A program made the position numbers and the translations under genes. From the NCBI GenBank assembly GCA_002296185.1, contig DBHM01000027.1, forward strand, positions 1-59,006: a DNA stretch of 59,006 nucleotides, given 5' to 3'. Under the pieces are notes generated by a model. That model saw only the letters and a program-made list of their open reading frames with translations, was not told the DNA's origin and ran no database searches. Position 1 is the first letter of the stretch. The number at the start of each line of letters is the position of its first letter. Shown here in pieces: positions 989 through 21,661 of the stretch. Origin of the DNA: Alphaproteobacteria bacterium UBA828. Lineage in GTDB: Bacteria > Pseudomonadota > Alphaproteobacteria > UBA828.

Positions 989-2314
989 TTATTTGTCCCA
1001 ATTATCAATAAGATGAATAAATGAGCCCATAATATTGCCAATACGACTACCGCTATTTCCTATATTGTTCCCTTTTGCATCAGAAATTGTAAATAGACTC
1101 TCAGAGTAATTTAGGTTCTGTATAGTGGCGTAGTGAAATTCATGTCCTTTATATATAGAGCCTAATTTTCCAAGGGGACTAGAGGCTGCCAGCTTGGCAT
1201 TGCGATATCCAAGTGTAAGTTTTTTTTCTTTTAGGCTGGTGTGAATAGGAAAAAGGTTAGCCATATCATAGGTATTTCCCGAATAATCCATAATAGATTT
1301 TCCCATAACCATGTAGCCTCCACACTCTCCATAAATAATTTTGTCATTTTCTGCAGCCTCACGAAGTCCACTTAAGAATTTGTGACTCTCAGAAAGTTGT
1401 TTGGCATGAAGTTCAGGATAGCCTCCAGGTAAATATATGGCACCAGTATTTACGTCTGGGGTTTCATCTGCGAGCGGGGAAAATAATGTCAAGTGAGATC
1501 CAGCGTTATGCCAGCTATCGAGAAGGTCAGGGTAGGTAAAAGTAAAGGCGTCATCAGAAGCTATAGCAATATTTGTACTTAATGGGGGTATAATTGGTTT
1601 TTCCAAAAAGGGACCCTCATCTGTTTTTACTTCACTTATAATCTTTAATATTTTTTCTATATCAACATACGAAATAATTATGTCAGCAATTCGGTTAATG
1701 GTATTCTCAAGGTCATCATACTCTCCAGCTTGGATTAGTCCCAAGTATCGAGACGGAAGATGAATTTCAGCACTTTCAGGAATAACCCCGAGAACGGCAA
1801 TCTCTGATTTATCTAAAGATTCTTTGAGTATAATCTCATGGCGCTTACTATTTACCCTATTAAGTATAACACCGCCAAGAACTACGTCAGACCTATATTT
1901 TGCAAATCCTTCAGCAAGGGCTGATACTGAAGAACCCATTCCCGAACAGTCTATAACTAGCAATACTGGCAAACCAAGCTTTGTCGAAATGTCTGCAGTT
2001 GAGGAACTGCCATTGATCGCACCGTCAAATAGACCCATTACGCCTTCAGTCAACAAAATGTCCACATTATTTACACTGCGATTAATAATATAATTCACGG
2101 TATTGGGATGCATAGCCCAAAGATCTATATTATGACATTGGTTTTTTGCTGCGGTGCTTAGAAATGCTGGATCAATATAATCAGGGCCTACTTTAGCTAC
2201 ACCAACATTTTTGCCGGCTCTTTGCCATGCCCTTGCTAGACCTAAGGTTATAACAGTTTTTCCACTTCCAGATCTAGGGGCGGAAATTACTATACCTTTA
2301 GCGTAACTAGAGAT
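989..2314 (-). CDS. cobB: Cobyrinate/hydrogenobyrinate a,c-diamide synthase
   Basis: The frame continues upstream of the track start (2113) to give GIVISAPRSGSGKT (P-loop) and KVGPDYIDP; also EGVMGLFDG, HLPSRYLGL and the glutaminase motifs GECGG and HEFHY. No ATG/GTG/TTG precedes the P-loop, so the start is placed at ATC 2314 (see findings). Confidence 0.93.
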   Translation of the reverse strand: MSSYAKGIVISAPRSGSGKTVITLGLARAWQRAGKNVGVAKVGPDYIDPAFLSTAAKNQCHNIDLWAMHPNTVNYIINRSVNNVDILLTEGVMGLFDGAINGSSSTADISTKLGLPVLLVIDCSGMGSSVSALAEGFAKYRSDVVLGGVILNRVNSKRHEIILKESLDKSEIAVLGVIPESAEIHLPSRYLGLIQAGEYDDLENTINRIADIIISYVDIEKILKIISEVKTDEGPFLEKPIIPPLSTNIAIASDDAFTFTYPDLLDSWHNAGSHLTLFSPLADETPDVNTGAIYLPGGYPELHAKQLSESHKFLSGLREAAENDKIIYGECGGYMVMGKSIMDYSGNTYDMANLFPIHTSLKEKKLTLGYRNAKLAASSPLGKLGSIYKGHEFHYATIQNLNYSESLFTISDAKGNNIGNSGSRIGNIMGSFIHLIDNWDK

Positions 2315-2951
2315 GTTTTCTCACTTCCTCAGCAATTTCTACGGGTTCTTGGCCGCGACTAAAGTGCCGAACATATTCATCTTCAGGGCTAATAAGATAG
2401 ATGTATACTGAATGATCCATAATATAATCATCATCTATAGAAGAGTCTTCTGCTTCCGGATTATTTACTCTTCTATAATAGACTCTGTATTCTTTTGCTG
2501 CTGCTTCTATTTGTCTTTGAGTGCCTGTAAGTCCAATGATATCTGGATGGAAAATAGATAAATATGATGCAAGTTGTTCTGGGGTATCACGAGCGGGATC
2601 TATAGTTATAAAGAGAGTAGCAAGCTTACTTTTTTCTACATCCAATATTTCAAGCACTTTACTTATAACAAGAAGTTCTGTGGGGCAAATATCTGGACAC
2701 CAACTATAACCAAAGAATACTAATTTATGTCTATTAGAGAAGTTTTTCTCCGTTACAGTTTTTCCATTATGGTCAATAAGAGAAAATGGTCCCCCAATAT
2801 TCGCTCCGGCCGCACTTGAGGTTAGTTCTAATCTATCACCTATTTTGTTAATATCACCAAATAAAGAACCTTCGAACCACGCGTAAAACATCAATAAGCC
2901 AAGTATAATTGTCCATATTGTGGTTTTCTTTGTAAAGGTTGGGAGCTTCAT
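2307..2951 (-). CDS. SCO1/SenC family copper chaperone/thiol protein
   Basis: N-terminal TM anchor, GGPFSLIDHNG, FFGYSWCPDICP (CxxxC), DPARDT, MDHS (conserved His). Confidence 0.93.
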   Translation of the reverse strand: MKLPTFTKKTTIWTIILGLLMFYAWFEGSLFGDINKIGDRLELTSSAAGANIGGPFSLIDHNGKTVTEKNFSNRHKLVFFGYSWCPDICPTELLVISKVLEILDVEKSKLATLFITIDPARDTPEQLASYLSIFHPDIIGLTGTQRQIEAAAKEYRVYYRRVNNPEAEDSSIDDDYIMDHSVYIYLISPEDEYVRHFSRGQEPVEIAEEVRKHL

Positions 2952-3009: not shown

Positions 3010-3861
3010 TTACGCTATTTTATCAAATTTTTTAGCAAGTTTATGCGCTGCTTCCCGTCTTTTTTCAGGTGATACATCAGGATCAAGAACCTTCCGTAAT
3101 TCAACAACATTACCAATAACTAGGATAGCTGGAGGCTCAATTTCTTCCTTTATAGCTACCTTGGCTAGTTTACCAAGAGGTGCTTCTATTACTTGTTGAT
3201 TAGCTAAAGTGCCGTTAGCTACTATAGCAGAGGGTGTGGAGGCTGAAAGTCCATTTTCAATTAGTTTTTTTGCTACATTTTCTAAATGAGCAAGCGCCAT
3301 ATAAAAAATTAAAGTTGGAGCCCCTGCTGCTATTGCTTTCCAGTCGAGGCTATCAGGTATATTGCCTCCAGCACCATGGCCTGTTAAAAAAGTTACACCA
3401 TGTCCAGTAGTGCGATGTGTTACGGGTATGCCTGAGGCAGCAAGCCCTCCTACACTCGCAGTTATTCCAGGTACTAATCTAAATGGTATATTTTCTGCTG
3501 CTAACGCCAAGGCCTCCTCACCTCCGCGGCCGAACATAAATGGATCTCCACCTTTTAGACGTAAAACACGTTTCCCAGATTTTGAGCATTCAATTAGACG
3601 CTGAATAATGTCACGTTGCTTAAAAGAGGGTTTCCCTCCTCTTTTACCGGCATATTCCAAAACTACTCCTGCTGGCACTAATTGAAGTATATTTTTACTT
3701 ACCAAGGCATCATAAATTACTATATCTGCTTGATGTAAGGATCTATACGCACGGAGAGTTAGTAGCCCTGGGTCACCTGGGCCGGCCCCTACTAGCCATA
3801 CAGAGCCAGTTTCAAAACTGGGGTTATCAATTTCTGATATATCGATGATACTACGTTTCAT
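3010..3861 (-). CDS. cobA: Uroporphyrinogen-III C-methyltransferase (SUMT)
   Basis: VWLVGAGPGDPGLLTL, YDALV, RLKGGDPFMFGRGGEE, PGITA; no dehydrogenase/chelatase domain. Confidence 0.95.
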   Translation of the reverse strand: MKRSIIDISEIDNPSFETGSVWLVGAGPGDPGLLTLRAYRSLHQADIVIYDALVSKNILQLVPAGVVLEYAGKRGGKPSFKQRDIIQRLIECSKSGKRVLRLKGGDPFMFGRGGEEALALAAENIPFRLVPGITASVGGLAASGIPVTHRTTGHGVTFLTGHGAGGNIPDSLDWKAIAAGAPTLIFYMALAHLENVAKKLIENGLSASTPSAIVANGTLANQQVIEAPLGKLAKVAIKEEIEPPAILVIGNVVELRKVLDPDVSPEKRREAAHKLAKKFDKIA

Positions 3862-3872
3862 GATGATCCAAT

Positions 3873-3888
3873 GCTATCCTGAGATAGC
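3873..3888. promoter_or_regulatory. Inverted repeat GCTATC-N4-GATAGC in the cobA/cbiD divergent spacer; possible operator
   Basis: Perfect 6-bp arms read directly from the 52-bp spacer; function not shown. Confidence 0.25.
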
Positions 3889-3913
3889 TCTTTGGGCTAT
3901 ATAAACTTTACTT

Positions 3914-5059
3914 ATGATGATAAACGACCAAGAATCAATATTTGGCCATGGAGAGGGCCTGAGGGGTCCAGATTCTGCGAATTTGCGCAGAGGATGGACA
4001 ACGGGTGCCTGTGCTGCGGCAGCTGCCAAGGCGGCTACAGAGGGCCTATTGGGGGTGATTTTTCCTGATCCAATTACTATAGATCTTCCTAGGGGTATAA
4101 GGCAGCCTTTTAATATTACTGCATTTGAGTTTGGTCACAAGTGGGCTAGGGCAAGTGTAAGAAAAGATGCTGGCGACGATCCGGATGTAACACATGGAGC
4201 TTTAATTGTTTGTGAAGTACGTATTACTGAGCCTGGGTCAGGAATCAGATTTATAGCTGGTTCAGGTGTTGGCACAGTGACACGACCAGGTCTCCCTATT
4301 TCTGTTGGAGAGCCTGCTATAAGTCCAGGACCAAGAAAATACATAAAGGAGGCTATCGAAAGCGTTACTGAAAGGGAAAATAAACCATGCAATTTTGATA
4401 TTATCATATCAGTGCCGGGCGGAGAAAAACTTGCTCAAAAGACTCTAAATGAGAGGCTTGGGATTAAGGGTGGAATTTCAATTCTTGGTACGACGGGAGT
4501 GGTTATTCCATATTCCTGCGGTGCATGGATAGCATCGATACACAGAGGGGTTGATGTCGCTCGTGCTGCAGGGCTAACACACATTGCAGCAGCTACAGGA
4601 AGAACATCAGAAACAGGTGTAAAAGACTTACATCAATTATCTGACCAAGCAATTATAGATATGGGTGATTTTGCAGGTGGATTTTTAAAATATCTTTCAA
4701 AGAATCCGTTGCCTCGGGTAACAATAGCTGGGGGGTTTGCAAAAATAGCTAAGCTAGCAAGAGGGCACTTAGATCTTCACTCTAAAAGAAGTCAGATAGA
4801 TATAGAATACCTAGTTACTAGCCTGTCCACCTTAGGTGCTAGTGATGAAATAATAAATGAAGCTAAAATGTCTAGTAGTGGAGCTGAAATATTATTGATT
4901 GCCCAAAAAGCTAAACTACCCCTAGCAAATCTTGTTGCTGTTGACAGTTGTAAGGTCGTGATTCAAACGCTCTCATCTGGCGATCATGCAAGTGGCATCT
5001 CTGTTGATGTGGTTATTTTTGATAGAAACGGTGTTTTGGTTGGACATGCAAATGGATAA
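3914..5059 (+). CDS. cbiD: Cobalt-precorrin-5B C1-methyltransferase
   Basis: LRRGWTTGACAAAAAKAA, KDAGDDPDVTHG, GVGTVTRPGL, LGIKGGISILGTTG. Confidence 0.96.
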   Translation: MMINDQESIFGHGEGLRGPDSANLRRGWTTGACAAAAAKAATEGLLGVIFPDPITIDLPRGIRQPFNITAFEFGHKWARASVRKDAGDDPDVTHGALIVCEVRITEPGSGIRFIAGSGVGTVTRPGLPISVGEPAISPGPRKYIKEAIESVTERENKPCNFDIIISVPGGEKLAQKTLNERLGIKGGISILGTTGVVIPYSCGAWIASIHRGVDVARAAGLTHIAAATGRTSETGVKDLHQLSDQAIIDMGDFAGGFLKYLSKNPLPRVTIAGGFAKIAKLARGHLDLHSKRSQIDIEYLVTSLSTLGASDEIINEAKMSSSGAEILLIAQKAKLPLANLVAVDSCKVVIQTLSSGDHASGISVDVVIFDRNGVLVGHANG

Positions 5060-5813
5060 GGGGCCTATACTAATTCTCGGTGGAACTCACGAAGCGAGAA
5101 AATTAGCAGAGCATCTGACAAAAGAATTGGGTAATAATTCAGTAATAAGCTCTCTTTCTGGTGCTACAGAAAAACCAAAAAGTTTACCTGGGAAATCACG
5201 CATAGGTGGTTTCGGAGGGGCTGAAAAATTTGGAGAATTTCTGCTAGATAATCGAGTTATAGCAGTAATAGACGCAACTCATCCTTTTGCTGAACGTATA
5301 TCTGTCAACGCTATAACTGCTTGTAGAAAAGTTAATATACCATTGATCAGCCTACAAAGAAAACCATGGCAGAAACATAAAAATGACAATTGGATAGTGG
5401 TGCGTGATTTACCTGCTGCTGTCGATTTAGCGCCGAATTTTGGACTAAGAGTATTCCTGAGTTTAGGACCAAGAGCCATTTCATATTTTTCCAGGCATAC
5501 CGATTTGTGGTTTCTTGTGAGGGTGATTGATGCACCGGAAGAGCCTATAAAACTAAAAAATTATAAACTAGTTTTAGGGCGTGGCCCTTTTAATTTAGAA
5601 GATGAGTTAAATCTATTAAAAAGAAACAATATAGATTTGCTAATTACTCGAAATAGTGGGGGCGAAGCTTCATATGCTAAGATCTTAGCCGCTAGGAAAC
5701 TAAGTCTTCCAGTGGTTATCATCAAACAACCAATAAACATAAATCTTCATGTGGCTAATAGTTTAGATGATACACTTAATTTAATATCATCTCAGTTAGG
5801 CCGAAAAATATGA
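5052..5813 (+). CDS. cobK: Precorrin-6A/cobalt-precorrin-6A reductase
   Basis: ILILGGTHEAR, RIGGFGG, IDATHPFA, RGPF, TRNSGG; start moved to ATG 5052, an 8-nt overlap with the cbiD stop. Confidence 0.94.
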   Translation: MDKGPILILGGTHEARKLAEHLTKELGNNSVISSLSGATEKPKSLPGKSRIGGFGGAEKFGEFLLDNRVIAVIDATHPFAERISVNAITACRKVNIPLISLQRKPWQKHKNDNWIVVRDLPAAVDLAPNFGLRVFLSLGPRAISYFSRHTDLWFLVRVIDAPEEPIKLKNYKLVLGRGPFNLEDELNLLKRNNIDLLITRNSGGEASYAKILAARKLSLPVVIIKQPININLHVANSLDDTLNLISSQLGRKI

Positions 5814-6547
5814 GTATGATCCTTGCTATATAGCAAGCTATCAATTGATTGGTCGCTATTTAATGATTTACTTATAATTATTAGTGCCGTTCGAGTGATT
5901 CCTGCTGATTTCACTTTACCCTTGATGTCTTGGAGAGTGCCATAAATAATTTTTTCGTCAGGCCATGATATACGGTAGCCAATGATGATAGGGCAATCAG
6001 CTCCATAATAAGGGATCAGTGTTTTTACAACTTTTGCGAGGTTATTAATAGAAAGATGAATTGCTAGTGCTGCTCCAGTCGAAGCGAGGTTGCTTAATTC
6101 TTCTCCTGGAGGCATCTTTGAAGCGCGAACAGCTGTCCGGGTTAGTATAATCGTTTGAGTCAAACTGGGTGAAGTTAGCTCTTTTTTCATGGCCGCAGCA
6201 GCTGCGGCAAATGCTGGTACGCCAGGAGTTATATCGTAATCGATATCCAGTTTTTTGAGTCGATAAATTTGTTCATTAACTGCTCCGTATAGGGAAGTAT
6301 CACCTGAGTGGAGTCGCACAATAATATCTCCACTTGCATGATATTTTATAATTACTTCTATTATTTCATCTAAAGTCATCGTGGCTGTATTTATAACAGT
6401 ATGAGCGTTTTTAGCTTGTTTTACTAAGTCTTCAGGTACTAGTGATCCTGCGTACAAAACGACTTGGGCTTTTTTTAAAAGATTGAGCCCTCTCACAGTG
6501 ATTAAGTCTGGTGCTCCGGGCCCGGCGCCAATAAAATGAACTGTCAT
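5792..6547 (-). CDS. cobM: Precorrin-4 C11-methyltransferase
   Basis: VHFIGAGPGAPDLITVRG, YAGSLV, RLHSGDTSLYGA, PGVPAF; 3' end overlaps cobK convergently by 22 nt. Confidence 0.96.
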   Translation of the reverse strand: MTVHFIGAGPGAPDLITVRGLNLLKKAQVVLYAGSLVPEDLVKQAKNAHTVINTATMTLDEIIEVIIKYHASGDIIVRLHSGDTSLYGAVNEQIYRLKKLDIDYDITPGVPAFAAAAAAMKKELTSPSLTQTIILTRTAVRASKMPPGEELSNLASTGAALAIHLSINNLAKVVKTLIPYYGADCPIIIGYRISWPDEKIIYGTLQDIKGKVKSAGITRTALIIISKSLNSDQSIDSLLYSKDHTHIFRPN

Positions 6548-8355
6548 TGACTGCTCACATTTTTTTGATGATATCCACGTGGAGTATAAATGTATGATCT
6601 CCCCGCATTACGCGCATTACGTGTTTCATGGTTACCAATTATTAAAATGGTAAGCATATCTATTAGGTCTTCATTTAGATCTCTAAGTTTGAGCATTTTA
6701 ACATTTTCATTTCTCCGCCCCAAGCAGCGCGCAACAATCACCGGGCATTCTGGTCCTCTATTATTTTTAATAATATGTAGAGCTTTTTTGAGTGGTTGCC
6801 TCCTATTTTTTCCTGCGGGGTTATAGAGTGCAATGACAAACCCAGACTCAATAGCAGCAGAAACTCTTTTTTCAATTATTTTTAAGGGTGTTAAAAGGTC
6901 AGATAATGAAATCGCGCAAAAGTCATGTCCAAGTGGAGCCCCTGCACGAGCAGATGCTGCTTGCATGGCGCTTATGCCTGGTTCGACGACTACATCAACG
7001 AATCTCCATTCAGAGTCTTCAATCTGTTCAAGAAGTTCAAAAACTAGACTTGCCATTCCATAAATACCAGCATCACCAGAGCATATTAGAGCAGTATCTT
7101 CACCTTTTGCGGCTAAGTTTAGAGCCATACTAGCTCTCTTAGTTTCATCTCCGATGGTAAAAGAGTGCTTAAGACAATTGATGTTTAGATGCTCAATAAG
7201 TTCTAAATATCCAACATACCCTACATGGTGTTGGCTTTCATTGAGTGCTTTGAGAACCGCAGGTGTCATCCAGCTTTTCTGACCTGGCCCAAGCCCTACT
7301 ATGGTAAGTCGGCCAATTCTTCGTCCAACCTCTTCTATATTTATACTATTTTTTGACTGCGCTATAGAGCACGTTACACCTTTTGCGCTCTGTTTTGGCG
7401 CAATGAGGGAAGATTCTGATCCCGCTGCACACAGGGCAGCTCCTTCTGCAACCCCGTAACAGCCAACAGCTTCAAATACGGTATTTGAGGGATTTATTAA
7501 TCGTAAACGTTGTTCATTTAATTGATGAACATCAAAAAATATAAGAGGTACCTCAAGGTGCGAAGATAGGTCGCGAATTGCAACTTCATCTGCTTTTAAG
7601 TCTATTGATGTTATACATGCAATCGAGGATGGAGATATTTTATTATCCTTTATCATTTTCTCAGCAAGATTAATTAATTCTTTTGATTTTACTTCTCTTT
7701 CGCAACCTACGCCTATTGCAATTGTTTTTGGTATTAGCACTACATCACCACAAGCATCGGATTTATCACTAAGAGTTATAGAAAGTTTGGCGTCTTCATT
7801 CCATTTATATTGATCTTTTATCCACGAGCAGTCTCCGGATTCAACTTGAAGGCGTACTGGCTTATCGTTTAAAATTGCGTTTGTAACTTCCTTAACCTTA
7901 CTTTTATGGTTGATTTCCCACCCTGGTGGAGGATCATCAAAGGCAGTATCAATTAATGTTTCGCTTGCTGTGGTGTTCACTAGAGACGCTTGTAACTTTA
8001 AAGCAATATCCTTTCCGATTTTATTTCCCCCTCTGTGGCCCCCTAGTATGGGTATAACAAAAGATCCATCAGTCGATATGGCTATTACTGGTGGTTCTTC
8101 TAGCTTATTAGATATAATTGGTGCCAAGGCTCGAATGAGAATACCACTAGAGCATATCCCTATAATTGGTCTTCCTGCCAAAAAAAGTGACTGAAGAAGA
8201 GGTGAGATATTTTCAAAAGCACTGTCTTTATTTCCGGCTATATTTTTAGGTGCGTATATCTCACAAGGGAAGCATGCTGCACTCAAAGTTTTTGCGATAT
8301 TAGCACTATAGGTATTAAGTGTAATGACTGCCGCGAGATTGTTTCGAGTATTCAT
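6544..8355 (-). CDS. cobJ: CbiG (cobalt-precorrin-5A hydrolase)/CobE domains fused to precorrin-3B C17-methyltransferase
   Basis: N-half: GILIRALAP, EPPVIAI, GGHRGGN, TTASE, GVGC, GVAEGAAL (CbiG). C-half: VGLGPG, SGDAGIYGMA, PGISAMQAASARAGAPLGHDFCAISLSDLLTP, ALYNP, YTPRGY (CobJ/CbiH). Confidence 0.92.
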   Translation of the reverse strand: MNTRNNLAAVITLNTYSANIAKTLSAACFPCEIYAPKNIAGNKDSAFENISPLLQSLFLAGRPIIGICSSGILIRALAPIISNKLEEPPVIAISTDGSFVIPILGGHRGGNKIGKDIALKLQASLVNTTASETLIDTAFDDPPPGWEINHKSKVKEVTNAILNDKPVRLQVESGDCSWIKDQYKWNEDAKLSITLSDKSDACGDVVLIPKTIAIGVGCEREVKSKELINLAEKMIKDNKISPSSIACITSIDLKADEVAIRDLSSHLEVPLIFFDVHQLNEQRLRLINPSNTVFEAVGCYGVAEGAALCAAGSESSLIAPKQSAKGVTCSIAQSKNSINIEEVGRRIGRLTIVGLGPGQKSWMTPAVLKALNESQHHVGYVGYLELIEHLNINCLKHSFTIGDETKRASMALNLAAKGEDTALICSGDAGIYGMASLVFELLEQIEDSEWRFVDVVVEPGISAMQAASARAGAPLGHDFCAISLSDLLTPLKIIEKRVSAAIESGFVIALYNPAGKNRRQPLKKALHIIKNNRGPECPVIVARCLGRRNENVKMLKLRDLNEDLIDMLTILIIGNHETRNARNAGRSYIYTPRGYHQKNVSSQ

Positions 8356-10267: not shown

Positions 10268-10893
10268 TAGATTCCCCTTGCTAGGGCATTAAGGGCTGCT
10301 ACAGCCATAGCACTTCCTCCCAATCTACCTCTCACTGCAATAAATGGAATACCTCTATTATCATTAATCAGTGCCTCTTTGCTTTCTGAGGCGCCGACAA
10401 AACCTGGCGGTGTTGCGATTACTAGGGCGGGTGTATTGTTTGGTGTGTCAATAATTTCAAGAAGACGAAAGAGAGCTGTAGGAGCATTTCCAATAACTAC
10501 AATAGAATTCTTTAGAAAGGGTTGCCAGAGATCAACTGCCGCCATAGCTCGGGTAATTTTAGTGTTAGTACTAATTTTTCGAGTCCTATCATCATTCAGT
10601 GTGCATAAGATATTATTATTTTTTGGAAGGGCTGAAAGATCTATTCCAGCCGTTACCATATTAACATCTACTATTATTGTTGCTCCTTCGCTGAGTGCTT
10701 GCTGACCTGATGAGACCGCATTTTTTGAAAAATCAATATAATTGTGTAACTCTGTTATTCCGCAGGTATGTATCATACGGCTAGCAATTGGACGCATATT
10801 TTTAGGTAAAATTTCGAGATTTATTTCGCGCTCAATAATATTGAATGAACGCCTAGTAATCTCCTCTGGATCTCTAATATAATTATTATTCAT
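10267..10893 (-). CDS. cobH: Precorrin-8X methylmutase
   Basis: RMIHTCG, VIGNAPTALF, PPGFVGASESKEAL, RGRLGGSAMAVAALNA; ATG 10893 overlaps the cbiX stop by 8 nt (alternative start 10905). Confidence 0.95.
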   Translation of the reverse strand: MNNNYIRDPEEITRRSFNIIEREINLEILPKNMRPIASRMIHTCGITELHNYIDFSKNAVSSGQQALSEGATIIVDVNMVTAGIDLSALPKNNNILCTLNDDRTRKISTNTKITRAMAAVDLWQPFLKNSIVVIGNAPTALFRLLEIIDTPNNTPALVIATPPGFVGASESKEALINDNRGIPFIAVRGRLGGSAMAVAALNALARGI

Positions 10894-11812
10894 TATGCTT
10901 ATCATGATTGTGACTGTGATGGTGTTGCTCTGATTCAGTTCCTATCCCCTCAACATGGTGGTGATGTCCAACTTGAGCGGCCCCATGATCATGCTCATAG
11001 CCTATTATTTGCTCGCGATATTTACAGAGCTGACAATTCATTACATTTTTACCTATTGTGATTTCATCTAACCGGGAAATGAAGCTGTCAACGACTAATG
11101 GATGATCACCAAGATACTTGGCTACAGAAAAATTTATATCTTTGTAGTTTTCCCTTGCCTCATTGACGGCGTCATAAATTCTTTTTACCAAAACACCAGT
11201 GAAGAGAAAGTATGGGAAGACCATTATTCGATTAAATCCAAGTTTTACAACCTTTTCCAAAGCTGGTCGGATTAGTGGATAAGTGACTCCTGTATAAGCT
11301 ACCTCTGCCCAACCAAAATTCATTCCTTCCCAAAGCATACGTGTAACCTTTGATATATTTGAATTTGCGTCTGGATCAGAGGTTCCTCGTCCTACAACAA
11401 GTAGTAATGTATCTTCACGAGAAATAAATTCAGAGCAATTTTGTTCTGCATTTTCAATGCGAGCACGACTTGCTGCAATAAGTTTAGGGTGAATAGCTAG
11501 TTCACGGCCATAAGAAATTTCAAAACCATCATTATCAGCAATAAAATTATTTAATACAGAAGGAATATCATTTTTTGCATGACCTGCAGCAAATAGCATG
11601 CCTGGCAAAGCCTCAACGCGGCTTATACCTGAATTTCTCATTTGAGTTAGTTTTTCACCTATGGTAGGTCGAGCAAACTCAAGAAAACCATGATCTACAA
11701 ACCTATTTGGTAGACGTTTTGTTATAAGTTTTGCAAGATTCTGAAACTCCGAGACAGCTTCAATATCTCGACTACCATGGCCGCAGAGTAGAATGGCTGG
11801 TTCATCTGCCAT
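10886..11812 (-). CDS. cbiX: Long-form CbiX sirohydrochlorin chelatase with C-terminal Cys motif and His-rich tail
   Basis: LLCGHGSRD, FLEFARP, AGHAKND, second lobe VGRGTSDPDAN, MNCQLCKYR, GHHHHVEG...QHHHSHNHDKH; strong AGGAG SD. Confidence 0.92.
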   Translation of the reverse strand: MADEPAILLCGHGSRDIEAVSEFQNLAKLITKRLPNRFVDHGFLEFARPTIGEKLTQMRNSGISRVEALPGMLFAAGHAKNDIPSVLNNFIADNDGFEISYGRELAIHPKLIAASRARIENAEQNCSEFISREDTLLLVVGRGTSDPDANSNISKVTRMLWEGMNFGWAEVAYTGVTYPLIRPALEKVVKLGFNRIMVFPYFLFTGVLVKRIYDAVNEARENYKDINFSVAKYLGDHPLVVDSFISRLDEITIGKNVMNCQLCKYREQIIGYEHDHGAAQVGHHHHVEGIGTESEQHHHSHNHDKHNE

Positions 11813-11858
11813 TGATTTCTCCTAAATCCTGGGAATTGACTGTGATGGATATGAGCAT
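11802..11858 (-). CDS. Putative 18-aa linker ORF MLISITVNSQDLGEINGR overlapping the cbiX start
   Basis: AAGGAG (11870-11865) lies 6 nt before ATG 11858; TGA at 11804-11802 overlaps the cbiX ATG by 11 nt. Not in the ORF track; translation unproven. Confidence 0.3.
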   Translation of the reverse strand: MLISITVNSQDLGEINGR

Positions 11859-11870
11859 CATGCTCTCCTT

Positions 11871-12896
11871 ATGGAAAATTTAATGATATGGTACTTCCCT
11901 GACTGGTCTTTTATGGACTGGGCCACAGGCCCTGGCAATGCCTTGATTCTTATTTTTGCCCTTATTCTTGATGGAATAATAGGCGATCCTCGCTGGTTTC
12001 CTCATCCAGTTCGGGGTATAGGGATAATTATTCAGCTCTTCGACAAAGTTTTGAATCGTAGTATTTTTAGTGAGACCCTTAAAAAGGCATTGGGTCTTTT
12101 GACTGTTATTTTTATTGTTGGAGCAATGTTTGTAGCCGGATGGTTTCTTGGAGGATATGCCAAAAGCATTCCTTATTGTTGGCTCATTGAACTCTTTTTT
12201 ATTACTATTTTGATGGCTCAGCGGAGTATGGTAGATCATGCAACTTTGGTGGTCACGCAAATGCGCCATAATGGTATTTCTGGCGGTAGGGCTGCTGTAG
12301 GCCTCATAGTTGGAAGAGAAGTCTCTAAATTGGATGAAAAAGGTATTTCGCGAGCAACCATTGAGAGTACCGCAGAGAGCTTTACTGATGGAGTTTTTGC
12401 TCCGATATTCTGGTATCTGCTCTTGGGGTTGCCGGGTCTTTTCGCTTATAAATCTATTAGTACCCTCGATAGTATGGTTGGATATAAAACAACAAAATAT
12501 ATGGCTTTTGGTATGGCTGCGGCAAAGACTGATGACTTTGCCAGCTGGATTCCTGCCCGTATCGCAGGGCTGATTATTGCTTTTGCAGCAATATTTATTC
12601 CTGGTGCATCTTTTAGGGGTGCGTTTTCTATTTTCTTCCGGGACTCTAGAAATCATAGTTCTCCCAATGCAGGGTATACCGAAGCTGCAATGGCCGGTGC
12701 TTTGGGTCTGAGACTTCTTGGCCCCAGGAAGTATAGTGGTGTTATTTCTGAAGACACTAGATGGTTGGGTGCGGGGGCTAAGGACGCAAATAAGGATGAC
12801 ATTATCCAAGCTATAAAGATTTTTTCTGTTGCTTGTTTTATCACTGGCGTACTGGTCGCTATATTGGCGGTAATAATTCAGTTTAGTATTTCCTAG
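11871..12896 (+). CDS. cobD: Adenosylcobinamide-phosphate synthase CbiB/CobD
   Basis: LDGIIGDPRWFPHPV, IVGRE, ESTAESFTDGVFAP, YKSISTLDSMVGY, SPNAGYTEAAMAGAL; exact start uncertain because ATG 11871 has no SD. Confidence 0.95.
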   Translation: MENLMIWYFPDWSFMDWATGPGNALILIFALILDGIIGDPRWFPHPVRGIGIIIQLFDKVLNRSIFSETLKKALGLLTVIFIVGAMFVAGWFLGGYAKSIPYCWLIELFFITILMAQRSMVDHATLVVTQMRHNGISGGRAAVGLIVGREVSKLDEKGISRATIESTAESFTDGVFAPIFWYLLLGLPGLFAYKSISTLDSMVGYKTTKYMAFGMAAAKTDDFASWIPARIAGLIIAFAAIFIPGASFRGAFSIFFRDSRNHSSPNAGYTEAAMAGALGLRLLGPRKYSGVISEDTRWLGAGAKDANKDDIIQAIKIFSVACFITGVLVAILAVIIQFSIS

Positions 12897-12911
12897 TGGG
12901 CTAACGTGCAT
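11880..12911 (-). other. 343-codon in-register antisense ORF spanning all of cobD; possible overlapping gene or translated spacer
   Basis: Listed in the ORF track; codon-aligned with cobD, which has no TTA/CTA/TCA after codon 4; ATG 12911 overlaps the cobQ stop by 11 nt. No recognisable protein motif. Confidence 0.35.
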
Positions 12912-14424
12912 GGGCTATCTCTATAATTCTATCAATATCAATTGATCCTTCAATTTTTTTTGCCAGACCATTTAGTGCTTCTTCCACTTCATTGTTCCAG
13001 TTTATCAATATATTATTAGCTCTTTCCTCTTCTCTCAAAGACGCAAGCCAAGCATGCCTGAAGGAGTCATTTTGGAAGATACCATGAATATAAGTTCCAG
13101 AAATATTTCCGCTCAGCGAAATTGCTCCGTCAATTTTTCCTGTACTTAATTTACACAACGGGCGTTCTAAGTCTGGTCCGTCTGTTTGGCCCATATGCAT
13201 TTCATATCCCTGGATCTCCGTATTAGTTTGTATGTGTTTACCGCTTACTTCTAAGAGAGTTTTTTCTTCTGTGATTCTAGTTGAAACATTAAGTAGTCCA
13301 AGACCTTCTTCTGTCCCTGGCGTGCCTTCAACGCCTATCTCGTCGTTAATTATTTTTCCTAGTATTTGAAATCCTCCACAGAGGCCTAGAATGATTCCCC
13401 CGCGACGAGCAAAAGCAATTATATCTGTATCCCAACCTTCCAATCTTAGATCTTTCAAATCAGCTCTTGTTGCTTTTGACCCAGGAATAATTAGTGCATC
13501 TATATTGGTGGGGATAACTTGCCCTGGTTGCAAAAAACTTACTTTAACATCTGGTTCTGCTATTAGAGGATCAATATCATCAAAATTTGAGATACGTGAT
13601 AGGCGAACAACCATTACATGAAGTGGGTCCAAATTATTTTTATTGGGAGGTTTATTGTACTCTTTATTTTTTTTATCTATACTTGATGAATCTTCTTCAG
13701 GCAGTATCGCTGCCTCAGATAGCCAGGGGACAACCCCAAGAAGGGGAGCTTTTATCCTATTTTCTAGTATAGTTTTTGCATCATCAAATAAGGATGTGTC
13801 GCCTCTAAACTTATTAACAATAAGCCCTTTTATCCTCTTTCGTTCAGAATCTGAAAGTAATTCGAAGGTTCCTACTAGACTCGCTATAACCCCCCCTCTT
13901 TCTATGTCGCCCACTAAAACTACGGGTAAATCTGCTGCTTCAGCGAATCCCATATTCGCCAAGTCTCCTTCACGTAGATTTACTTCTGCAGTGCTCCCAG
14001 CTCCCTCAACCAGAACAATATCAGCCTTTGAGCTAATAGAATAAAAACTATCGAGAACATGAGGCAGTAAAGTAGGTTTAAGAGAATGATATTCTCGCGC
14101 CTGTGCATTACATAAAACCCTTCCACGTACGATAACTTGTGAACCAATTTCACTTTGAGGTTTGAGTAAAATTGGATTCATATCTGATATTGGTAGGACC
14201 CCTGCTGCTCGTGCCTGTAACGCCTGTGCTCTACCAATTTCACCCCCTTCACAAATCGCAGCATTATTTGACATGTTTTGGGGTTTGAAGGGATATACAT
14301 TAAGCCCTCTAATTGCTAATGCTCGCGCTAATCCGCTAACTAACAAAGATTTTCCGACATCAGAACCAGTTCCTTGAATCATTACTGAAGGGGTATTACC
14401 CAATTTTGTTGGCAATGATGACAT
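12901..14424 (-). CDS. cobQ: Cobyric acid synthase
   Basis: MIQGTGSDVGKS, FKPQNMSNNA, EIGRAQALQA, VEGAGS, RISNFDD, GLCGGFQILG, GYEMHMG, GTYIHG. Confidence 0.97.
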   Translation of the reverse strand: MSSLPTKLGNTPSVMIQGTGSDVGKSLLVSGLARALAIRGLNVYPFKPQNMSNNAAICEGGEIGRAQALQARAAGVLPISDMNPILLKPQSEIGSQVIVRGRVLCNAQAREYHSLKPTLLPHVLDSFYSISSKADIVLVEGAGSTAEVNLREGDLANMGFAEAADLPVVLVGDIERGGVIASLVGTFELLSDSERKRIKGLIVNKFRGDTSLFDDAKTILENRIKAPLLGVVPWLSEAAILPEEDSSSIDKKNKEYNKPPNKNNLDPLHVMVVRLSRISNFDDIDPLIAEPDVKVSFLQPGQVIPTNIDALIIPGSKATRADLKDLRLEGWDTDIIAFARRGGIILGLCGGFQILGKIINDEIGVEGTPGTEEGLGLLNVSTRITEEKTLLEVSGKHIQTNTEIQGYEMHMGQTDGPDLERPLCKLSTGKIDGAISLSGNISGTYIHGIFQNDSFRHAWLASLREEERANNILINWNNEVEEALNGLAKKIEGSIDIDRIIEIAHAR

Positions 14425-21384: not shown

Positions 21385-21398
21385 ATTTCTAGCTTGAC

Positions 21399-21621
21399 GT
21401 CCAGGAGGTCTCCTGGCTTGGTGTCATTAACGCTGTCGGCCTTCCCGCGTACTTTGTCTCTAGGGGACAGTTCTGCAGTGACATATTTTGCCAGCCATAA
21501 ATGTGGCATTGGGCATTTAGACAGCGTCTAATTCCTTACAGTTGCGGGGGCAGCACCGGACTAGCAATATTGCATCACCGGCTTCCCTGTCTAGACGTCA
21601 GGGACCAAGAGTAGCCTAGAC
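21399..21621 (-). ncRNA. Cobalamin (AdoCbl) riboswitch upstream of cobU
   Basis: Minus strand shows TGGT...AGGGAAGCCGGTG...TCCGGTGCTGCCCCCGCAACTGT, then CACTG...GGGAAGG and the B12 box AGCCAGGAGACCT; P1 = GUCUAGG (21621-15)/CCUGGAC (21405-399). Confidence 0.95.
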
Positions 21622-21661
21622 TGAGCATAGAAGCGAGTCGAATGATTAAAAGTATAAATTT

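Follow-up and report, generated by a model that had tools for sequence, protein, structure and literature searches.

How transcription survives a long untranslated antisense stretch is a recognized puzzle for noncontiguous operons, in which a run of co-directional genes contains one gene of opposite orientation that the operon transcript has to cross in antisense. Runaway transcription, as invoked for Gram-positive bacteria, is no answer for Proteobacteria, in which untranslated RNA is under the surveillance of Rho. Here, we examine this question in a cobalamin cluster carried by a 59,006-nucleotide contig (GenBank DBHM01000027.1, 39% GC; the whole stretch is referred to below as the window) of Alphaproteobacteria bacterium UBA828, in which cobD is inverted relative to the genes on either side. 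The locus offers a testable answer, namely that the strand opposite cobD is kept translatable and is coupled to its neighbors at both ends. We favor, with a probability of roughly 0.6, the reading that a translated "bridge" cistron lies opposite cobD, on the minus strand, and that the openness of its frame and its junctions are under selection and its amino acid sequence is not.

The minus strand of the window carries, in this order, cobU, a btuF-like gene, cobW, cobN, cobO and cobQ; cobD follows on the plus strand, and the minus-strand run resumes with cbiX, cobH, cobL, cobI, a cbiG/cobJ fusion and cobM (assigned from Pfam and the list of open reading frames, ORFs). The inverted gene cobD/cbiB, encoding adenosylcobinamide-phosphate synthase (11871..12896, plus strand, 341 amino acids; Pfam PF03186 CobD_Cbib, E = 5.7e-92), is the sole plus-strand gene within the cobU-to-cobM run, which has the gene layout of a noncontiguous operon. 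On one side lies the cobyric acid synthase gene cobQ (12901..14424, minus strand; Pfam GATase_3 and CbiA), whose stop codon is 4 nt from that of cobD. On the other lies the cobaltochelatase-type gene cbiX (10886..11812, minus strand; Pfam CbiX, E = 1.2e-52), the first of the downstream ring-synthesis run, whose start is separated by 58 nt from the cobD start at 11871. At the remaining junctions of the operon, the genes overlap by 1-20 nt or are separated by no more than 15 nt. A cobalamin riboswitch (21386..21635, minus strand; Rfam RF00174, 64.8 bits, E = 9e-14) heads the cobU-btuF-cobW-cobN-cobO-cobQ run and is the only riboswitch that Rfam finds in the window. Both the gene order and the riboswitch had been proposed in an original prediction made from the letters of this DNA without database searches, and both are borne out. 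Public gene calls place the start of cobD at M5 (ATG 11883), which gives a protein of 337 amino acids (P0122).

Opposite cobD lies an ORF of 343 codons (11880..12911, minus strand) in exact register with the cobD codons. In this register, an antisense stop arises wherever cobD uses TTA, CTA or TCA, and its 32 leucine and 24 serine codons include one TTA (codon 4), no CTA and no TCA. The other 56 ORFs of the window use these three codons at 2.8-10.3% of all codons (mean 6.6%), with TTA and CTA together making up 48% of leucine codons and TCA 26% of serine codons. Given this synonymous usage, 21 register stops would be expected in the 337 codons after codon 4, and none is found (P = 1.3e-12), a value that does not change when only plus-strand genes or only minus-strand genes serve as background. 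The depletion is confined to the register antisense frame (0.3 stops per 100 codons), and stop density is ordinary in the two other antisense frames and in the two alternative sense frames of cobD. The original prediction had drawn attention to this ORF and to the missing codons, and the ORF list and codon counts make the case stronger than it was put there. Its side counts also hold, with 8 such codons among the first 48 of cobT and 22 in cbiD, where about 20 had been estimated. The TAA that closes the ORF (11880..11882, minus strand) corresponds to cobD codon 4 or, if cobD starts at 11883, to the triplet just before the gene, in which case the sole register stop adjoins cobD from outside.

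An open frame of this kind might reflect no current selection at all, being due to chance, to descent from a high-GC ancestor or to the codon usage of a foreign donor. We consider this explanation very improbable. It is true that GC at third positions (GC3) is somewhat higher in cobD than in its surroundings (0.36 vs 0.27) and that its third-position A content (A3, 0.18) is the lowest in the window. This shortage of A-ending codons is real, yet insufficient, as P remains 2.4e-10 when calculated on the third-base composition of cobD itself, and the A-ending codons of Ala, Gly, Val, Thr and Glu, among them GCA, GGA, GTA and GAA, are used normally, as is ATA; the original prediction had noted ATA, GCA, GTA and GGA as common. 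Among leucine codons, TTG is raised to 38% in cobD against a background of 11%. A strand or replication bias is rejected on two grounds: plus-strand genes use TTA, CTA and TCA at the same share, and cbiD-cobK, another inverted block of this cluster that serves as an internal control, has normal densities (22/381 and 28/275 codons) and no open antisense frame. Nor is the ORF a compositional shadow of codons that are generally rare, since the three account for 6.6% of window codons and, in other bacteria, cobD genes whose GC3 is below 0.45 hold 8-28 register stops. At 343 codons and 39% GC, the antisense ORF is longer than composition explains (P from 1e-12 to 2e-10). Synonymous codon choice in cobD, in the form of this absence of TTA, CTA and TCA, can be dictated by needs of the opposite strand.

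The arrangement recurs well beyond the window. The order cbiX(-)/cobD(+)/cobQ(-) is present in more than 20 alphaproteobacterial loci and is widespread in Alphaproteobacteria. For each locus, we computed the expected number of register stops from its own neighboring genes. In high-GC relatives, the register frame is open almost by default, which would suit an absence of selection, and six of them (L016, L100, L095, L101, L028 and L002) together have 0 stops against 19.8 expected. The low- and medium-GC loci have 1 stop against 25.2 expected in L098 (38% GC, P = 3e-10; the single stop is at codon 7), 0 against 23.1 in L104 (38% GC, P = 1e-10) and 0 against 10.4 in L027, a Sneathiella metagenome-assembled genome (51% GC, P = 3e-5). 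Two further loci are partly decayed, with 5 stops against 23.1 expected in L102 (43% GC) and 12 against 23 in L004 (39% GC). Pooled over 16 related lineages of the window type, the window itself excluded, 17 register stops are observed and 122.9 expected, and all 17 fall in L004 and L102. The ORF listing gives the antisense ORF as 346 amino acids in L098 (5019..6059) and 369 in L027 (4893..6002); its length varies among lineages between 343 and more than 470 codons, with an N-terminus that is not conserved. The layout in L098 resembles that of the window, the antisense stop adjoining an in-frame cobD ATG.

Among loci with cobD in other arrangements, register stops occur as often as expected (212 vs 215.7 in 42 loci), and six loci with other inverted layouts have 30 stops against 27.6 expected. 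The original prediction had named scattered stops in close orthologs of the same gene order as a possible refutation, and this is borne out in part, such stops being found in L004 and L102. Three Thalassospira loci (L017, L023 and L025), in which cobD follows cbiX(-) and is not next to cobQ, have 9 register stops against 16.5 expected in sum.

The sister pair L098 and L104, with 63% identity in CobD, provides a cleaner test of this selection than the pooled counts. Of 34 conserved leucine and serine sites, 18 have switched codon, as in neighboring genes, and none of the 68 codons at these sites is TTA, CTA or TCA, against roughly 37-55% in neighboring genes. Because these codons turn over normally and the three stop-generating ones never occur, the pattern is one of ongoing purifying selection against antisense stops. 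Synonymous sites are also saturated between the window and either member of the pair, and a relic of a high-GC ancestor is rejected by this saturation together with the turnover. Composition does not account for the pair either: GC3 of cobD is 0.27 in L098 with neighbors at 0.25, and 0.31 in L104 with neighbors at 0.21, an offset like that of the window. A foreign donor with a different codon usage, which the original prediction had named as a possible refutation, is likewise rejected, as the window, L002 (67% GC) and L004 (39% GC) are about equidistant over the eight cluster genes compared, among which cobD does not stand out. Taken with the conserved junctions described below, the counts in L098, L104 and L027 support the earlier claim that selection keeps the antisense frame open.

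The nearest named CobD relatives, in Rhodospirillaceae and Rhodospirillales metagenome-assembled genomes, are about 50% identical, and single-protein scans of genome and metagenome contigs returned no close relatives. The population stems from marine metagenomes of Tara Oceans, near-identical contigs being present in several assemblies; those compared (L090-L094) are without useful variation. One of these variants, L093, has GGA changed to TGA at cobQ codon 153 (equivalent to position 13968 of the window), so that cobQ is split into two called genes; this reflects a pseudogene allele or, alternatively, an error in the assembly.

At the cobQ end, the start codon of the antisense ORF (ATG, 12909..12911, minus strand) lies 11 nt upstream of the cobQ stop (12901-12903), an overlap that had been noted correctly, as had the 4 nt between the cobD and cobQ stops. 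This ATG is the second codon after an upstream in-frame stop (TAG, 12915-12917), and the start signals sit within the final codons of cobQ (..I-E-I-A-H-A-R-stop). The start is built from the last two bases of a cobQ codon and the G of the next, and an ATG, GTG or TTG is kept at this fixed position in 14 lineages, while the cobQ residue there may be H, D, N, R or V. With the codon boundary marked by a slash, the NTG is formed by CAT/G in the window, L004 and L027, by GAT/G in L002, by AAT/G in L028, by GTT/G in L095 and by CGT/G in L011, L014, L016, L046, L098, L099, L100, L101 and L104. CGT makes up only 5-12% of arginine codons in the high-GC members, in which T-ending codons are rare, and the joint probability of the conserved NTG, taken as the product of synonymous-codon frequencies, is about 1e-9. 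In the partly decayed L102, the start is lost (CGT/A).

Upstream of the antisense start, most lineages carry GGAG 7-8 nt before the NTG, built from the Leu-Glu codons of cobQ. At this site, the three low-GC lineages with an intact ORF have GAG and the two decayed ones GAA, as judged from the junction sequences of 15 or more loci. The corresponding Shine-Dalgarno-like sequence of the window, AGAGA (approximately 12918..12922, minus strand, read by eye from its junction sequence), is weak. The start overlaps the end of the upstream cistron, as is characteristic of coupled cistrons.

At the cbiX end, the register frame closes in 9 of 17 loci with a TGA that overlaps the cbiX start (ATGA, GTGA or TTGA), and in 11 of 17 the phase is the same. 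As a sequence arrangement, such an NTGA overlap is the classic junction type of coupled cistrons. In L002, a single uninterrupted ORF (5935..7218) begins at the cobQ end and extends as far as the NTGA at cbiX, and in stop scans of L095, L100, L101, L031 and L046 the register frame stays free of stops over cobD and its 5' spacer up to the cbiX NTGA. The long ORF of the window ends 67 nt short of cbiX and is followed by a mini-ORF of 19 codons in the same frame (MMLISITVNSQDLGEINGR; 11802..11861, minus strand), which starts at ATG 11861 or 11858 and ends with a TGA (11802-11804) 8 nt inside cbiX. It is preceded by its own Shine-Dalgarno sequence, AAGGAG (11865..11870, minus strand, read from the sequence and the intergenic alignment), located just after the antisense stop, and it contains that of cbiX, AGGAG (11819..11823, minus strand), 6 nt before the cbiX ATG. 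The mini-ORF ATG is kept in most of the relatives aligned, and in several high-GC relatives the long ORF reads through. The position 11802, given in the original prediction as one limit of the finding, is the end of this mini-ORF.

A long ORF with conserved junctions could also be a true overlapping protein gene, for instance one whose product is a basic, disordered protein. The integrity of the ORF over deep divergence, the start kept with GGAG upstream and the operon-style overlaps at both junctions would all be expected of such a gene, and there are published reports of long antisense genes at other loci (PMC8850804, PMC7103648). The substitution pattern, however, makes this alternative, which the original prediction had also put forward, unlikely. 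Between the window and its 98% identical relative L001, cobD has 18 substitutions, of which 11 are synonymous and 7 non-synonymous in the sense frame; in the antisense frame, 16 of the same 18 alter the residue, often radically (W/R, R/C, G/S). Over larger distances, identity of the antisense products is what CobD conservation alone would leave: 26.5% between the window and L098, against 29.7 ± 2.0% under random synonymous recoding of CobD, and 23.2% between the window and L002, against 22.7%. Extra conservation at synonymous sites is also missing, as codon identity at conserved residues other than leucine and serine is no higher in cobD than in neighboring genes. By none of these three measures is there purifying selection on the antisense amino acid sequence, and the variable length and unconserved N-terminus mentioned above also speak against a constrained protein.

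The predicted antisense product also resembles nothing else. It matches no Pfam family, and a search among 5.8 billion predicted proteins found no homologue. Its composition is extreme: with a grand average of hydropathy (GRAVY) of -0.90, it exceeds each of 45 window proteins in hydrophilicity, it contains 4.7% cysteine, and its 54 lysine and arginine residues against 18 aspartate and glutamate residues give a net charge of about +36. A single-sequence AlphaFold model has a mean pLDDT of 31.6, which is weak evidence and uninformative beyond its low confidence. Collectively, these comparisons indicate that it is the openness of the frame and its junctions that are selected, and not the antisense amino acid sequence. 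Separately, the comparison of the window with L001 gives 11 synonymous substitutions per 341 codons in cobD and 13 per 201 in cobQ, with 7 and 1 non-synonymous substitutions, respectively; these small numbers hint at a lower dS and a higher dN/dS in cobD than in cobQ.

We therefore return to the bridge cistron and to what its translation might achieve. In the mechanism that we propose, the operon transcript started at the cobalamin riboswitch would run out of cobQ directly into the antisense strand of cobD. Ribosomes ending cobQ would re-initiate at the ATG 11 nt upstream of the cobQ stop, translate 343 codons over the entire inverted gene and halt at the cobD edge, and they would then restart on the mini-ORF with its own AAGGAG and end inside cbiX; in high-GC relatives, where one unbroken ORF begins at the cobQ end, they would arrive directly at the TGA that overlaps the cbiX start. 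The probable gain would be a ribosome cover that spares the C-rich, G-poor antisense RNA from Rho termination, degradation or R-loops, so that the cbiX-to-cobM genes are kept on the riboswitch-controlled message. Selection for an open, coupled antisense frame is well supported. Read-through of the riboswitch-controlled transcript, protection from Rho and antisense control of cobD, which the original prediction had put forward, are inferred, as are transcription and translation of the antisense stretch; an anti-polarity purpose is plausible. There is perhaps an even chance that such ORFs form a class of their own: antisense cistrons with an unconstrained product, kept free of stops and coupled in order that ribosomes may escort RNA polymerase across an inverted gene.

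Several features of the locus bear on this mechanism. RNA that is rich in C and poor in G has the composition preferred by Rho. The antisense RNA has a C/G ratio of 1.40, against 0.74-0.98 for true cistrons, and would therefore be a good Rho substrate if left bare. Coupled ribosomes are reported to prevent Rho loading (PMC5021804), and untranslated antisense RNAs are described as being terminated by Rho and NusG (PMC11551753). On the minus strand between cobQ and cbiX, we found no terminator-like sites, and promoter matches occur there only at chance level. Neither the window nor any of 15 relatives has a riboswitch close to cbiX, and the presence or absence of a riboswitch or promoter of its own for cbiX did not separate lineages with the ORF from those without it.

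Antisense translation could instead serve mainly to tune cobD, through sense-antisense pairing, RNase III cleavage or collisions between polymerases, in the manner of an excludon. Overlapping transcripts are unavoidable here, given that the convergent genes cobD and cobQ have stop codons only 4 nt apart and that no terminator was found, and noncontiguous operons and excludons are reported to act through such overlaps (PMC11034616, PMC7154746). We nevertheless regard this role as improbable. The NTGA at the cbiX start and the mini-ORF that leads into cbiX point to downstream coupling, and CobD acts in the same pathway as the products of the neighboring genes, so that, judging from the known pathway, mutual exclusion would have no obvious logic.

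The bridge reading itself faces a number of objections. Translating 343 useless codons would be costly for a streamlined marine cell. Other cob units in the window also have no riboswitch, which weakens the argument that cbiX regulation needs read-through. The inverted cbiD-cobK block of the same cluster does without any avoidance of antisense stops, and the Shine-Dalgarno-like sequence at the antisense start of the window is poor. Moreover, the ORF has decayed in L004 and in L102, where the start codon is also gone, and it is absent in L010 and L018 despite a similar gene order; it is therefore not obligatory and is dispensable in some lineages. Finally, the group of 16 lineages was delimited partly after the motif at the cobQ end had been seen, and its members are not fully independent of each other, so that a P value for the pooled counts should not be taken literally.

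The closest known parallel in gene layout is the noncontiguous operon menE-menC-MW1733-ytkD-MW1731 of Staphylococcus aureus (Saenz-Lahoya et al. 2019, PMC6358700, cited in PMC7457138), which shares with the cobD locus the interruption of co-directional genes by an opposite-strand gene. An atlas of noncontiguous operons states that transcription must persist over the untranslated antisense stretch and explains this by uncoupled, runaway transcription in Gram-positives (PMC11034616). The cobD locus differs in that the alphaproteobacterial ORF is kept open and has junctions of the coupled type. ATGA-type translational coupling, considered together with Rho polarity (PMC5021804, PMC12360218), provides a second parallel, in which a cistron starts within the end of the preceding one, its stop overlaps the next start, and the presumed benefit is a lead ribosome that follows RNA polymerase and keeps Rho off. 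In contrast to such cistrons, the bridge is the reverse complement of another gene and is apparently selected only for translatability.

Two further comparisons concern the product. The antisense overlapping genes olg1 and olg2 of Pseudomonas aeruginosa (PMC8850804), pop of Escherichia coli (PMC7103648) and cosA of Pseudomonas fluorescens (PMC2396522) are likewise described as long ORFs antisense within an annotated gene, and for the olg1/olg2 pair, purifying selection is reported to act at the protein level (PMC8850804). The antisense ORF of cobD differs from that pair in lying in DNA of 39% GC, in an openness that is statistically extreme and recurrent, and in an amino acid sequence that is not constrained. 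P. aeruginosa is a high-GC organism. In the leader ORFs tnaC, mgtA and corA, translation of an irrelevant or nearly irrelevant product decides Rho termination. Those leader peptides and upstream ORFs are short 5' leaders with regulatory stalling, whereas the bridge is an internal ORF of 343 codons with no sign of sensing. In a literature search that was not exhaustive, we came across no account of an antisense ORF that is kept free of stops to preserve the continuity of an operon.

If the bridge reading is correct, noncontiguous operons would be possible in bacteria with Rho-enforced coupling of transcription and translation, and selection would act on translation itself, the resulting polypeptide of more than 340 residues being disposable. 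A long, conserved and probably translated antisense ORF need not, in that case, encode a functional protein. Annotation pipelines never call this ORF, as illustrated by the lack of anything alike among the predicted proteins searched.

Other features of the cluster deserve mention. The divergent cobD-cbiX spacer (11813..11870) is densely conserved among lineages with only about 55% protein identity. It contains ATTGAC (11835..11840, plus strand), which includes an invariant GTCAA on the opposite strand in an alignment of 9 lineages and may be the -35 box of a cobD promoter, as well as CATGCTC immediately before the cobD ATG. A Shine-Dalgarno sequence is missing from cobD, and the spacer motifs may represent either a promoter for a nearly leaderless cobD mRNA or the site of a regulator.

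The cbiG/cobJ fusion encodes a protein of 603 amino acids (6544..8355, minus strand) that joins a CbiG_N/CbiG_C domain to a cobJ-like tetrapyrrole methylase, and the fusion is kept in relatives. The second inverted block, cbiD-cobK (3914..5813, plus strand), is flanked by cobM and cobA, both on the minus strand, within the region 3010..6547; cobK and cobM converge with an overlap of 22 nt, and cobA and cbiD diverge across 52 nt. In cobB/cbiA (989..2330, minus strand), the first canonical start (ATG 2113) falls downstream of the P-loop, and the in-frame stretch upstream of it (ENISSYAKGIVISAPRSGSGKTV...) lacks any ATG, GTG or TTG as far back as the previous stop, which points to a start codon outside the canonical set or to an error in the sequence. 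Plus-strand genes of the window have G3>C3 and T3>A3, and minus-strand genes show the reverse; these third-position skews suggest that the plus strand is the leading strand, in which case the long cob operon would be transcribed head-on to replication.

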